Shown here one piece after another: positions 17,869 through 22,428 of a DNA stretch of 36,770 nucleotides (position 1 is its first letter; each line of letters begins with the position of its first letter). The position numbers and the translations under genes are program-made. This DNA is from a virus (taxonomy: Duplodnaviria; Caudoviricetes): the IMG/VR virus record IMGVR_UViG_3300012971_000016, positions 1 through 36,770 of that record; one strand, given 5' to 3'. Under the pieces are notes generated by a model that had not been told where the DNA came from, searched no databases, and saw nothing but the letters and a program-made list of their open reading frames with translations.

Positions 17869-18588
17869 ATGTTTGATGAACAAACCTTAGGTAGTTTACC
17901 TGAAGTCCCTCAAGAAGAAACTCAAGAAACTTTAGTGCAAGAGACTCAACCTGCTCAGGAAAAACCTCAAGACACCGCTGCGATACCGCAAGAAAGTTTT
18001 AAACAACTGCGTGATAAAGCAGAAAAGGCTGAACGTGAACGTGACGAGCTTTATCGCAAGTTAAAAGCATATGAATCAGCACAATCTAATACGACTGATG
18101 AAGATATTAATATCGGTGCAGACGAATTGGCAGAAGGTAAACATCTTAATAAGGTACAACAAAAGATTAAGAAACTTGAAGCTAAGATAAATCAATATGA
18201 ACAACAATCAACTAATCTTTCAGTTGAAGCTAAATTGCGTAATCAATATCCTGATTTTGAACAAGTAGTATCTAAAGATAATTTAGATCTCTTGAGTGCT
18301 TCATATCCGGAAGTTTATAATACGTTACGTGAATCACAAGATATCTATTCTAAAGCAGTGAGTGCCTATACCATGATTAAAAAACTTGGCATAATGCCAC
18401 AAGATACCTTTAAAGAAGAAAAAGAGATTATTCAACGTAATACCGCTAAACCGAAACCGTTAGCGAGTGTTTCCCCGCAACAAGGAGATTCGCCGTTATC
18501 ACGGGCAAATGCGTTTGCGAATGGCTTAACTGATGAGCTTAAAGCACAATTACGTAAAGAGATGGAAGAAGCGCGTCGTAATATGTAA
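17869..18588 (+). CDS. Capsid scaffolding protein
   Basis: Acidic N-terminus, coiled coil, YPDF motif, short C-terminal helix; upstream of the MCP. Confidence 0.75.
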   Translation: MFDEQTLGSLPEVPQEETQETLVQETQPAQEKPQDTAAIPQESFKQLRDKAEKAERERDELYRKLKAYESAQSNTTDEDINIGADELAEGKHLNKVQQKIKKLEAKINQYEQQSTNLSVEAKLRNQYPDFEQVVSKDNLDLLSASYPEVYNTLRESQDIYSKAVSAYTMIKKLGIMPQDTFKEEKEIIQRNTAKPKPLASVSPQQGDSPLSRANAFANGLTDELKAQLRKEMEEARRNM

Positions 18589-18615: not shown

Positions 18616-18873
18616 TTACCGTGAGAAAAAATCAAAGATATAAGACCATATACCAAATGCCGGTAATTGGTAATAATATATAAACCAGGTAAAACCACCA
18701 AACCAAACTACTGCTAAAAATAATAACCAATATTTGTTGGTTAATGCAGGATCTCCTAACATTTCCGGTAAAGATCGGTAATCTTTTGTTATTAATTTTC
18801 TCAATAATAACAAAATGAAACCAATAAGAAATATTTCAATTTGACCGATTAATACCTGGATTATTGTCCTCAT
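18616..18873 (-). CDS. Small two-TM membrane protein
   Basis: Two hydrophobic segments. Confidence 0.65.
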   Translation of the reverse strand: MRTIIQVLIGQIEIFLIGFILLLLRKLITKDYRSLPEMLGDPALTNKYWLLFLAVVWFGGFTWFIYYYQLPAFGIWSYIFDFFSR

Positions 18874-18891
18874 TCTTATTCTCTCTATTAA

Positions 18892-19392
18892 TTAAAAAGT
18901 TGGTGCGGCAGTTCCTGCTGCTAATGCTACATTTGCGGCAACTTCAATTGCTTCAAATGTTTCAACCATATGAAGAGCGGCTTCTCCACCGGTTACATAG
19001 AGAGCAACACCATATCCAATGGCACCGACTGCCTTAGTACTCCAATAACAAATACTCCCCAAAATAGGGCCGCCACCTAATCCACGGACATGTGATGTTA
19101 ATTTAAAGTCACCATTATCGAGCTTATGGATAGAGATATAACCCTGCTTAATAAACTCTTTCATCTGTGCTTTAGTAGCATGTCTAATGAATTGATCTTT
19201 ATCATAGTTATTAACAACGGATGATATACCATTATTCTTTACGACGAAATTATTACTATTATCTCGAAATAGTTTTGTTTTACCGATATGATGCGGTACA
19301 TACAGCTGCGATCCCTTAAATTTAAGAATATCTTGTGTCGCATAATTTGTACTACCGACTATTAAACTCATAACTAATAATTTTTTAAACAT
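18892..19392 (-). CDS. Secreted protein with RGLGGG motif and hydrophobic C-terminal helices
   Basis: RBS AAGGA; signal peptide MFKKLLVMSLIVGS. Confidence 0.75.
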   Translation of the reverse strand: MFKKLLVMSLIVGSTNYATQDILKFKGSQLYVPHHIGKTKLFRDNSNNFVVKNNGISSVVNNYDKDQFIRHATKAQMKEFIKQGYISIHKLDNGDFKLTSHVRGLGGGPILGSICYWSTKAVGAIGYGVALYVTGGEAALHMVETFEAIEVAANVALAAGTAAPTF

Positions 19393-19474
19393 ATAGTTCC
19401 TTAATGTTTATTGATGATTAATATAATTTTACAGAACACTGCTTATATTATGTTTGTAACAGTATTTAATTTTA

Positions 19475-19924
19475 AAATATTAAATTATGGCATCGTAATT
19501 ATCCTCCATTTATTAACAATTGATTGAAAAGTATTTAAACAGATTAAGTATATTTTTATATTTTTCAAGATCTTACTATACGTATCAGAGTAAAAATATT
19601 TTTACCATACCCTAAAAAGTATGGGGTCTTTAAATCTTCTCTGATAGACTTGGAAGCCTTAACGTAAATACGAAGGTAACAAGGGGCAAGAATGACTCAA
19701 CAAATATGTAAAAAATGTGGAATAAATACTAAAAATACCATAGAAATATTCGCATATAATAAGTTTAATATATGCTATAAATGCGAAATTATTTTTTTTG
19801 ATATTGTTGAAGGATTTTTTCAGCCTGAACGTAGCAAGCGAGAAGACTCACATAAATGTGAGATGCGGTGCTCTGAACACTGTGGAAACACAGTGAGGGA
19901 TAAGTAGCCATATTCGTAATATTT
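19475..19924 (+). ncRNA. Circularly permuted group I intron ribozyme (split in P9.1) with 25-nt exon 19549-19573
   Basis: Core P3 TCTTCTC(19635)/GAGAAGA(19840), P4-P6, P7, P8, and P9 with GAAA loop, homologous to the MCP intron. P9.1 partner and omega-G lie upstream. P1 and P10 adjacent on IGS 19615-19630. Confidence 0.75.
19692..19907 (+). CDS. Small CxxC...CxxC ORF starting in L6 and reading through the ribozyme core
   Basis: AAGGGG SD-like; CKKC...CYKC; the C-terminal half is simply translated ribozyme core. Confidence 0.45.
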   Translation: MTQQICKKCGINTKNTIEIFAYNKFNICYKCEIIFFDIVEGFFQPERSKREDSHKCEMRCSEHCGNTVRDK

Positions 19925-19956
19925 ATTTTTTGATTAAAAGTGATATATAGTTACTA

Positions 19957-20040
19957 TAACGCAATAGGGAGTCGTTAACCCATTCCGGACGCAAAGAGGG
20001 ATTCGTCCTCCTTAGACGCAAATGAAGCTTCGTCAACTTC
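19957..20040 (+). promoter_or_regulatory. Three tandem mini-pseudoknot motifs in the capsid 5' leader
   Basis: RACGCAA..X..TCGTY..X' three times, with compensatory changes in both stems. Confidence 0.65.
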
Positions 20041-20083
20041 GAAATGTAATACTATATTTCAGGTTTTTTATAAGGAGAGGTCG

Positions 20084-21353
20084 ATGGCAATAACTACGAC
20101 CAGTACTTTACCGGCTGCGGTTCAACAGTCTTTTAGTTATAAACTGTTATCCGTTCCGGTTCCTAATATGATTCACAAAATACCTGCTATGCGTAAAAAT
20201 ATGCCTCGTAACGGTGGTACAACCTTACGTATGCGTCGGTAGATTTTGCCGACGATAAATTTCTGGTAATTGACTTGGAGACCGAAGTGATAGAATTGAT
20301 ATATAAAAAAAACCGCAGAATGTTAAATCCCATTCAAGTGACCATTCTACGGCGGTTTTTGAATAACATTACTATTATAAATGTTTTTAAATTTTTGTCA
20401 ATTTTATTAACTGGCAACAAGGGGCAAGTTTTAATACAGCCTGAACGACTAAACCCAGAAACCCGAAAGGGATGCGATAGTCTGAACATTACGGAGAACG
20501 TAATGAGATAGAGTCGAAGAACTTTATCCGCCTCAAAAGAGGTCATAAAAAGTAACAGATTGATAATCCGTTAAATACTGCAATGGTTCCGTTAGGAAAT
20601 AGCGGGATAACTCCGCCGCCTCAAAACCTTACTGCAGTTGATATTGATGCTAAGATTTCATTTTATGGTACCTATGTAACATTGAATGAACAAGTTACCT
20701 TACAAAACCAAGATCCGGTTCTTAATGAGTGCGCTGCTCGTCTTGGCGTATCATTGAGACAAACTGAAGATCAGTTAACCCGTGATATGTTAGCTTCAAC
20801 TGCTAGTTTTCTTAACTGTGTAGGAGGGGTAAATGGTGATAACCCTACTGAGATTACTCGTACCGATGTTGATAACATTGTGCGCGCATTGTTAAACAAT
20901 AATGCATATACCATTATGGACAATATTGAAGGTGAAGATAAGTTTGGTACGGCACCAGTTCGTGATGCCTATTTTGCTTTATGTTCAACTCAATTAACCG
21001 GTAATTTAGATTCAGTTGCGGGATTTATTCAAAAGAACCAATATCCGGCACCGATGAATGCATTACGTTCAGAGTGGGGCGCAATTGGGAACCTCAGATT
21101 TCTTGTTTCATCAATTGGCAGCTTTACTCCCGTTGCTTCATTGCTTGGTCAAACCGTATTTAACATATTTTGTGTCGGTATGGAAGCATATGCCTGTATA
21201 GAACAAGATGGCTATAGTGCAGCATTTATTTACCGACCACCAATATATGATGGCCCATTAGCACTTAATGCATCAGTTGGGTATAAATTCGCTGAAGTAC
21301 CGCGAATTACCAATGATCTGTGGGTGTTAAATTTACGTGCTACATTAGCTTAA
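20084..21353 (+). CDS. Major capsid protein, N4-gp56-like; spliced (exon1 20084-20240, exon2 20563-21353; 315 aa)
   Basis: RBS AAGGAGAGG; MAITTTSTLPAAVQQSF...TTLRMRR-Y-NPLNTAMVPLG restored by intron removal; YGTYVTLNEQV...DPVL motif. Confidence 0.9.
20241..20562 (+). mobile_element. Group I self-splicing intron (no endonuclease ORF) in the MCP gene
   Basis: P1 CGTCGGT/GCCGACG with U.G at the splice site; P3 TTTCTGG/CCAGAAA; P7 GACTA/TAGTC; P8, P9, P9.1, P9.2; ends in G; splicing restores the frame. Confidence 0.95.
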
Positions 21354-21363
21354 AGGAGATAAT

Positions 21364-22428
21364 ATGGATGGTACAATTATAGGACAAGGATCCTTTACGC
21401 AAGGTGCAACCGCGGTTGCTCAAACAATCGTAATCCCTTCTAATGTAGATTCTTTAGAAATATATAACTTTACTCAAGCAGCAGCGACTGCCGGTAATGG
21501 ATTTGAATTCTATTGGCAGCGCAGTATGCCATCAGGTAAAGGTATTGTTTGGTTAAGTGGTGCTGCTCATGCGGTAACCGTTAATCAAACTGCAGCTGGC
21601 GCATTTACGCTCTATGATCCAACTGCTATTAGTCCGGTAGGTGCTAATAATAATGGTTCTACCGGTGTCAGTGGATTTACTGCCGCTAATCCTGCAGTGG
21701 TAACCGTTGGGTCTACCTCAGGCATGGCAGCTGGTAATATTGTCAGATTTAATACCTTAGATAATCAACCGCAATATACCGGTATAGATTTTTCAATCGG
21801 ATATGGCACCTTAACAGGTACTACATTCAGTGTTGATTATCTTAATTCTACGGGCTCTATCCCTTCTACTTCAGGTAATTTCAGGGTAGTACAAGTAAAC
21901 CCACTCTTTTATCCAAGATGGCGGGTTATTACTAATGTTACTGCAGCAGCTCAAGCAGTAATTACTTTGAGTGTTGATCATGGATTTACCGTGGGCCAAG
22001 AAGTGAGATTATCATTCCCTGGTGGTACATTAATCTATGGTAATTATGCTGCTCTTGATGGTGTTCAAGCAGTTATTGTAGCGGTTGATACGGCAACAGG
22101 TGTTGGTCATAATACGATTACCGTAGATGTTGATACCTCTGGTTTCCCGACATTTAACTTCCCTTCACCAGGATTAGTACCGTTTAGTCCGGCATTGGTT
22201 ATTCCAATGGGTGAAGATACTGCTACTTCATTGGCCTCATTAGTAGCTCAAGTGCCCGTTGTTAATGGGGTACAAATACCTAATACGAATGTGGGTATTT
22301 TAGCTGATTCAACGGTAAATACGGCTTATTTAGGGATGACATTAGCAGCTGGTGCAGCATTACCTGCTGGATCTGCCAGTGATGTCGTATTCTGGGTAGC
22401 CCGTAAAGCTATGTTTGGTGGTATATAA
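21364..22428 (+). CDS. Virion structural protein (decoration/minor capsid; FCCH-like beta repeats)
   Basis: Follows the MCP; TAANPAVVT and AVITLSVDHGF..G..V motifs. Confidence 0.7.
   Translation: MDGTIIGQGSFTQGATAVAQTIVIPSNVDSLEIYNFTQAAATAGNGFEFYWQRSMPSGKGIVWLSGAAHAVTVNQTAAGAFTLYDPTAISPVGANNNGSTGVSGFTAANPAVVTVGSTSGMAAGNIVRFNTLDNQPQYTGIDFSIGYGTLTGTTFSVDYLNSTGSIPSTSGNFRVVQVNPLFYPRWRVITNVTAAAQAVITLSVDHGFTVGQEVRLSFPGGTLIYGNYAALDGVQAVIVAVDTATGVGHNTITVDVDTSGFPTFNFPSPGLVPFSPALVIPMGEDTATSLASLVAQVPVVNGVQIPNTNVGILADSTVNTAYLGMTLAAGAALPAGSASDVVFWVARKAMFGGI

Follow-up and report, generated by a model that had tools for sequence, protein, structure and literature searches.

A group I intron core outside any gene, upstream of a phage capsid gene: a displaced capsid-intron piece or a natural permuted intron?

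PIE constructs are usually split in P6. In the engineered examples based on the Anabaena, Tetrahymena and T4 td introns, the 3′ half precedes the exon and the 5′ half follows it, both halves are intact, and circles of 71-1130 nt are produced (PMC4344496). A natural counterpart has been reported from corallimorpharian mitochondria, in which the ND5-717 group I intron starts from a permuted precursor and back-splices by way of a circular exon RNA (PMC6545197, a case also cited in PMC8637638). According to that report, the intron is split in P8 by an insertion of 18-19 kb, is permuted only by way of the circular genome, and restores an mRNA. CP group II ribozymes, by contrast, are described as free-standing elements with a reversed splice-site order that release small circles (15-86 nt) and repair no gene; about 290 members are reported, with covariation and in vitro proof (PMC8637638). 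Natural group I introns that are spliced in trans reportedly break in L8, L9 or after P9.1, an example being Pr.rnl.2 of Prasinoderma, which has a natural break near P9.1 and relatives whose loops carry ORFs (PMC3873408).

Here we analyse an element in a complete virus record of 36,770 nt, from a soil phage, which we call the window. A preliminary description had proposed that this element is a natural permuted group I intron, and had stated that none was known; the latter is incorrect, given the report on ND5-717 (PMC6545197). Like ND5-717, the proposed element would be a natural group I intron with a permuted precursor, but its split would lie in L9.1, it is compact, it resides in a phage, its exon of 26-65 nt is non-coding, and it is known from sequence alone. 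It differs from the CP group II ribozymes in its chemistry and in being a single sequence, and it would share its order with the engineered PIE constructs if the relic upstream of its core is functional. Unlike Pr.rnl.2, which is organellar and joins real exons from two transcripts (PMC3873408), it consists of one stretch of phage DNA. A published analogue of the family to which its core belongs, not claimed to be sequence kin, is the capsid intron of mycobacteriophage LittleE (PMC3706429). In the literature searched, which included few subscription journals, we found no group I intron of a phage or bacterium that is naturally permuted; intron databases may list kin. We regard the element as real and unusual, and its reading as a permuted intron as a hypothesis worth weighing that is rather doubtful and that, even if true, would not be categorically new.

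An undecayed group I core between genes

The window has direct terminal repeats at its ends and encodes a terminase, a P22-like portal and a major head protein. Nothing close to this phage was found among cultured phages, the best capsid identity being 24.5%. The element is flanked by two reverse-strand ORFs (18616-19392) on one side and by the capsid gene's leader on the other; the capsid gene begins at 20084 and contains a conventional group I intron of the same family (Table 1; covariance model score 108.6 bits). Joining the exons of this gene gives an open capsid frame (phrog_1357, major head protein). Among the 80 closest capsid loci, the interval between the gene corresponding to 17869-18588, labelled 'scaffold' from its position only, and the capsid gene could be measured in 67 and ranges from 168 to 3386 nt. 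This slot is an insertion hot spot, and none of the 80 loci carries a free-standing core in it. A scan with the upstream neighbour ORF 18892-19392 gave no close relative, and its distant relatives occur in 6 loci, all of which lack the element. Promoter and terminator scans gave results at chance level.

Table 1. Positions in the window of the parts of the element and of the neighbouring capsid intron
Feature	Position	Strand	Remarks
Upstream arm, candidate long-range P9.1	19475..19505	+	19475-82/19917-24, 19486-91/19907-12, 19499-505/19897-903
Upstream tail-like segment, candidate omega-G 19548	19527..19548	+	GU and AAC separated by 5 additional nt; not preceded by P9.2
Candidate P10 strand	19549..19557	+	8 bp from 19550 (family register) or 9 bp (register of the preliminary description)
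Distal P1 target	19566..19574	+	7/9 nt like capsid exon end at QDP site; cut would follow U19574 in family register
Capsid 5′ exon remnant (QDP site), directly before intron	19604..19613	+	Local 5-bp P1 with U19613.G19623; 19609-19629 is 21/21 identical to L013
Intron 5′ end and internal guide, capsid QDP/V-site type	19614..19631	+	41 loci with guide, all conventional introns
5′ half of core: P3 5′ strand 19635-41, P4, P5, P6 5′ strand 19684-87	19632..19690	+	56 bits, covariation, covariance model match
71-codon passenger ORF	19692..19907	+	Starts in L6 behind AAGGGG, read through core
3′ half of core: P6 3′, P7, P3 3′ 19840-46, P8, P9 19879-94, P9.1 5′ strand, L9.1	19821..19907	+	86/87 identical to L013, 78 bits, covariation
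Downstream arm	19908..19931	+	19920-31 also weaker local partner for P9.1 5′ strand
Downstream tail-like relic, candidate omega-G 19950	19935..19950	+	12/16 like family tail, modal spacing from L9.1
Conventional group I intron, same family as element, in major capsid gene	20241..20562	+	Exons 20084-20240 and 20563-21353

Every string quoted in the preliminary description, including the three arm pairs and the guide at 19615-30, was recovered at its position. The core motifs occur in both the element and the capsid intron: GACTTGG at 19647 and 20272, AACAAGGGGCAAG at 19678 and 20416, CAGCCTGAACG at 19821 and 20437, and TCTGAAC at 19872 and 20481. That this is a genuine group I core, as had been proposed, is borne out by 28 compact relatives, in which P3, P4, P5, P6, P7, P8, P9 and P9.1 are 95.2% paired and 26 of 39 pairs show two-sided changes; slid controls are only 38-49% paired. 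P3 (99.5% paired) and P7 (100%) both show such changes in these relatives and have the same strands in the window, and the P4-P5-P6 domain, P8 and P9 are all present in the element. Both of its halves score inside the range of working introns with family profiles (Table 1), and in the 5′ half 61 of the 63 nucleotides at 19629-19691 are identical to a single relative, L327. The group I core at 19614-19907 shows no decay and comes from a large family of phage capsid introns. Rfam gave no match at E<=1 in the window, either for the element or for the conventional capsid intron; since the latter is missed too, the absent match reflects the reach of the model. The P7 strands lie at 19829-36/19869-74, with G19831-C19873 as the guanosine-site pair. 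This helix is a variant, common to a whole subfamily, in which an additional U is bulged next to the guanosine-site pair; it also has two compensatory pairs.

The core interrupts no gene and is broken off in L9.1, both as previously described, and its likeness to relatives ends at 19907. Conventional introns of the family (L013, L023, L049) share the core, the guide, the bulged-U P7 variant and an L6 ORF in the same frame, but they are inserted in a gene and have their P9.1, P9.2 and tail downstream, neither of which is true of the window copy.

Such a break could be an assembly artefact, in which a collapsed or chimeric join lies inside a core that the sample's other phages also carry. In run X1, a 20-kb contig that covers 18900-19889 without difference ends at 19889, at a 31-mer that other introns also have, and none of the contigs extends across 19890-19910. 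Coverage from independent runs confirms the phage only to either side of the element, leaving 19420-20160 uncovered (X2, X5, X7, X8 and X10 are uncovered at the element). On the other hand, X1, which may be the source sample, holds 259 of 259 sampled words of 18900-21400, and the stretch common to other introns is only about 31-41 nt long. In addition, the record is complete with terminal repeats and a gene order as in relatives, and the ORF recurs with the same stop on a second contig of 36,788 nt. We therefore consider an artefact extremely improbable.

Capsid ancestry of the guide and the passenger ORF

All 21 nucleotides of 19609-19629 are identical to the last five exon bases and the intron start in L013, and all 41 loci that carry the element's guide are conventional introns, nearly all of them at the capsid QDP/V site. 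Together, these matches imply that the ancestral 5′ splice site has been kept between 19613 and 19614. The core, the guide and the last exon bases derive from the capsid QDP/V-site intron type. This ancestral 5′ end, with a predicted cut after 19613 and a local P1 of 19609-13/19623-27, was overlooked in the preliminary description, whose P1, with U19573.G19624, is one base off the register of the family. A G stands 9 nt before AAAU in 230 of the 238 distinct 5′ ends compared for the family, and in 188 it supplies the G of the U.G pair in the longest local P1. This register places the G at G19623, so that cleavage would follow either U19574, in an 8-bp distal P1, or U19613, in a 5-bp local P1. 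The required U.G pair is present in both cases, although the local P1 is short compared with the 6-8 bp of 208 of the 238 family 5′ ends. A third hairpin, 19605-10/19619-24, competes with both forms of P1 and usually wins in computed ensembles. In longer folds the distal P1 has a probability of 0.001-0.15, and P10 is at about zero before cleavage. The proposed P10 has 9 bp and is flush in the original register, but in the family register it needs a 1-nt bulge.

At its own capsid QDP site (20705-20725) the phage has CCG/GTT, in which a G replaces the U that the guide requires. The phage's capsid message would therefore not be cut in register by the element's guide; relatives with CCT at this site would fit it. 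A 19-nt direct repeat (84%) at 19540-19558 and 19586-19604, with a P1 target after each copy, suggests a local duplication. The sequence TTGATT(G)AAAAGT recurs at about 19520 and 19930.

The passenger ORF runs through P6, P7, P3, P8 and P9, and its stop at 19907 falls exactly where likeness to relatives ends. Its protein has 76 relatives, 74 of which contain the core-coded QPERSK stretch. The frame is a property of the family, as 105 of 115 distinct L6 inserts of at least 60 nt open with ATG and enter the core in the same frame. Such overlap of an ORF with an intron core is known as 'core creep'. The 5′ half of the core is undecayed although the ORF does not need it, which points to either a recent arrival or selection on the ribozyme.

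The cargo of L6 differs widely within the family and includes unrelated small ORFs (CxxC proteins, DUF551; e.g. L002, L006, L010, L013, L244). These ORFs start just behind the conserved AAGGGG of P4/P6, and inserts in L8 keep the frame open too. Introns of this family seem to be vehicles for passenger genes and not for nucleases. Other QDP-site introns have ORFs of about 1 kb in L1, and an ORF with an HNH-like look lies in L9.1 of one relative (L023:2160-2670), in the loop where the window copy breaks off.

Candidate 3′ ends on both sides of the core

The expected downstream 3′ strand of P9.1, P9.2 and omega-G tail are absent from the element, and in the native order the family 3′ profile halts at node 45 of 89. 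The preliminary description placed the missing part upstream, with the upstream arm closing P9.1. With the register corrected, this model predicts that guanosine attacks after U19574 (or U19613), that the exon end attacks G19548, and that a 26-nt (or 65-nt) circle is freed. The arm pairs are present in the MFE structure with a pair probability of at least 0.97 and are the dominant feature of the computed fold. Taken alone, the arm does not exceed chance, being matched by 65 of 1000 and 403 of 3000 shuffles and by 60 of 245 real AT-rich windows. It speaks against the model that U-rich DNA is an easy pairing partner for the purine-rich strands of the guide and P9.1, as the 60 windows show. Given the P9.1 register, the extension of the arm by 6+8 bp was matched by 19 and 40 of 1500 shuffles and by 29 of 1234 real AT-rich segments (p about 0.02).

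The sequence AACAGATTAAG, which had been likened to an intron end, was verified at 19538-48, and its AAG ending is also found in L002. When 19495-19545 was placed behind the core in silico and the reordered sequence was aligned with an nhmmer profile, the family 3′ profile extended to node 87 of 89. Among 400 shuffles of the region, 12 reached the full profile length and 5 scored as high as the reordered sequence. The tail profile alone misses the upstream segment and finds only the capsid intron's own tail in the genome. The upstream segment lacks P9.2, which 141 of 141 evaluable relatives have, and its GU before AAC, intact in 136 of 143 relatives with a tail motif, is displaced by 5 nt.

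A tail, a P10 of at least 9 bp and a P1 of at least 7 bp occurred in this order in 4 of 20000 shuffles and in 0 of 245 real windows, and at lenient lengths the layout occurred in 0.8-4% of controls. All chance thresholds were set post hoc, with the sequence already in view. Each upstream feature is weak singly (p 0.01-0.24), and jointly they are unusual. Another post hoc observation is that joining 19916 to 19486 yields a 6-bp hairpin capped by a UUCG loop, with a 9-bp palindrome left behind, which is a hint of a 431-nt circle that was opened there.

Several of these observations favour back-splicing: the dominant arms, the profile extension, the ordered layout and the hint of an opened circle, as well as a distal P1 of the usual length for the family and the existence of natural group I splits near P9.1 (PMC3873408). 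Against it, no permuted homologue was found (see below), P9.2 and an intact GU-AAC are lacking, and the junction needs a 1-nt bulge in the family register. Furthermore, divergence is much greater in the upstream half than in the core, and a promoter-like site at 19534-62 (9 of 12 matches, not above chance) would start RNA after G19548. What stands of the original claim is a real, gene-free core with arms and an extended profile alignment; its P1 was misplaced, and the claim concerns a singleton. We judge back-splicing possible but doubtful.

A second tail-like relic, at 19935-50, had not been noticed before, and it is as unlikely as the upstream one (23 of 20000 shuffles). It suggests a different model, in which the element is a forward-splicing intron with a drifted 3′ end, spliced from a non-coding leader between 19613 and an omega-G at 19950. 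The family covariance model aligns end to end and ends its alignment at G19950, the tail match is at the modal spacing, and a local 12-bp P9.1 and, behind the relic, a 4-bp P10 can form with this end. The local P9.1 hairpin with 19920-31 was matched by 126 of 1000 shuffles. This model is contradicted by changes in the near-invariant AAC and G of the family tail, by the absence of P9.2, and by the profile, which does not proceed past node 45. In addition, the local P9.1 has a probability of only 0.001 when the upstream arm is present, and 19935-19950 likely lies in the capsid promoter zone, whose position was deduced from the leaders of relatives. We consider forward splicing quite unlikely. 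Both candidate tails score below the lowest training tail. As the two 3′ ends are mutually exclusive, either such coincidences are cheaper in U-rich DNA than the null models say, or both ends were inherited.

The core could also use the capsid intron's 3′ end, which lies 650 nt further downstream, through a hybrid P9.1 with 20523-29 and the omega-G at 20562. Capsid exon 1 would then be spliced out, in a regulatory or wasteful side reaction. The hybrid P9.1 duplex (-9.4 kcal/mol) equals the upstream P9.1 piece (-9.2), a 3-bp P10 is available in register, and the capsid intron has the only intact tail in the genome. Nonetheless, the hybrid pairing is expected, because the P9.1 strands of the family are alike; the capsid intron's own P9.1 is local and competes; and read-through transcription would be needed. 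We regard this arrangement as very unlikely.

Relatives, origin and likely activity of the element

The P7-variant pattern was found in 57 IMG/VR loci, with many more found by later scans. Among 174 distinct core matches, a tail follows within 170 nt in 156 and further off in 3. Another 2 lie in a capsid gene and have an intact P9.1, their tails being beyond the visible sequence, and the other 13 are truncated or spurious. Not one of the 161 cores that could be evaluated ends in L9.1 or is free-standing. A second permuted example was not found in these cores, in the 41 same-guide loci or in the 80 closest capsid loci, nor did IMG/VR scans by core, guide, 5′ motif and passenger-ORF pattern give a permuted copy. 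The 5′-motif scan returned 128 of about 680 stretches, 80 of them with full flanks. Of 200 family 5′ ends, 42 (cut or divergent) had no core by pattern, and these were assessed by eye on 40 nt of flank. Loci from a scan for an altered L9.1 in IMG/VR were rejected, since the pattern was too loose and none contained a core. A GTDB scan gave 3 copies, all conventional introns; 261 genomes of one host-candidate class gave only the conventional L531 and L532 and AT-rich noise; and a window-specific metagenome pattern matched only the window's own record.

The order of tail, exon and intron body, which the preliminary description took as the mark of permutation, is present in the window but is ordinary among the tandem introns of the family. 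A tail, a 22-nt exon and a QDP intron follow one another in 7 relatives (L029, L245, L264, L275, L276, L322, L244). Since this layout is natural in the family, inheritance could explain the upstream features without back-splicing. A displaced tandem fragment would be expected to have a worn tail upstream, an exon end like that at 19566-74, an intact intron and a worn tail downstream.

Our best explanation, which we hold to be somewhat probable, is that the element is a displaced piece of a multi-intron capsid gene, likely cut-only or inert, that carries a 71-codon passenger gene. A fragment consisting of the end of the preceding intron, a short exon and the QDP intron may have been copied into the variable slot ahead of the capsid promoter. 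The exon and the two intron ends would then have worn to AT-rich relics, with the stretch from P1 to the ORF stop being kept. Alternatively, the core may have arrived recently, in which case the relics would be chance. Displacement is consistent with relics on both sides of the core where a tandem fragment predicts them, with boundaries that fall at P1 and at the ORF stop, with the lack of an intact 3′ end on either side, and with the variable length of the slot. However, the combination of upstream features is one that shuffles seldom reproduce, and descent from a tandem leaves the 6+8-bp extension of the arm unexplained. Moreover, the linker 19549-19603 is not detectably capsid sequence: nhmmer gave no match, and 64 of 300 shuffles were as good. 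The idea that the linker is a worn capsid exon was accordingly dropped for all but its last 10 nt.

Group I cores without a 3′ end can still perform the first step of splicing, as in shortened Tetrahymena ribozymes. With an intact core and a 3′ splice domain that is not intact, the displaced piece is likely a one-step, GTP-dependent cutter, if it is active at all. Given read-through or local transcription of the element, P1 would form with U19613 or U19574, and free guanosine would attack there. The downstream RNA, comprising the core, the passenger ORF and possibly the capsid message, would thereby gain a new structured 5′ end. The second step would mostly fail, with no P9.2, P9.0 or well-placed omega-G. 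The first step may itself be poor, as the local P1 has only 5 bp and the competing hairpin is stronger. One RNA run, which holds mainly relatives and says little about back-splicing, contained no transcript of the element and no circular-exon joint. An RNA joint from 20712 to 19609 (run X11), considered as a possible back-splice, was read instead as a relative with an intron at its own QDP site.

Were the element cut-only, an intron would have turned into an mRNA-processing element or a vehicle for a passenger gene, which is a smaller but real novelty. We think it conceivable, but improbable on balance, that it is a compact, free-standing permuted phage group I ribozyme, split in L9.1, held together by its arms and born from tandem capsid introns. 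If so, it would back-splice a 26- or 65-nt circle and process a late transcript. It would then be a natural PIE element and the first compact prokaryotic group I counterpart of the CP group II ribozymes in the literature searched. Recombination among tandem introns would be a simple route to permutation, and the element would offer a new split point for circular-RNA production.

The family 5′ motif is present in about 680 IMG/VR stretches, marking a very large group I family that Rfam misses. Its capsid genes carry up to four or more introns at many different sites, with exons down to 22 nt. In one relative (L288), the core is followed after P9.1 directly by the P4 motif of another intron, in the manner of introns that are fused or nested. 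The MAG contigs that contain the conventional members L235, L234 and L236 have titles naming Ca. Babeliales, Nitrososphaeria and Actinomycetota and are probably binned phage contigs.

The capsid leader of the window (19960-20045) contains repeated units of the type GACGCAAA...TTCGTC, which gave no Rfam match. Similar repeats precede the capsid gene in many relatives (L071, L236, L006, L082, L097) and may represent a conserved RNA or protein-binding element.
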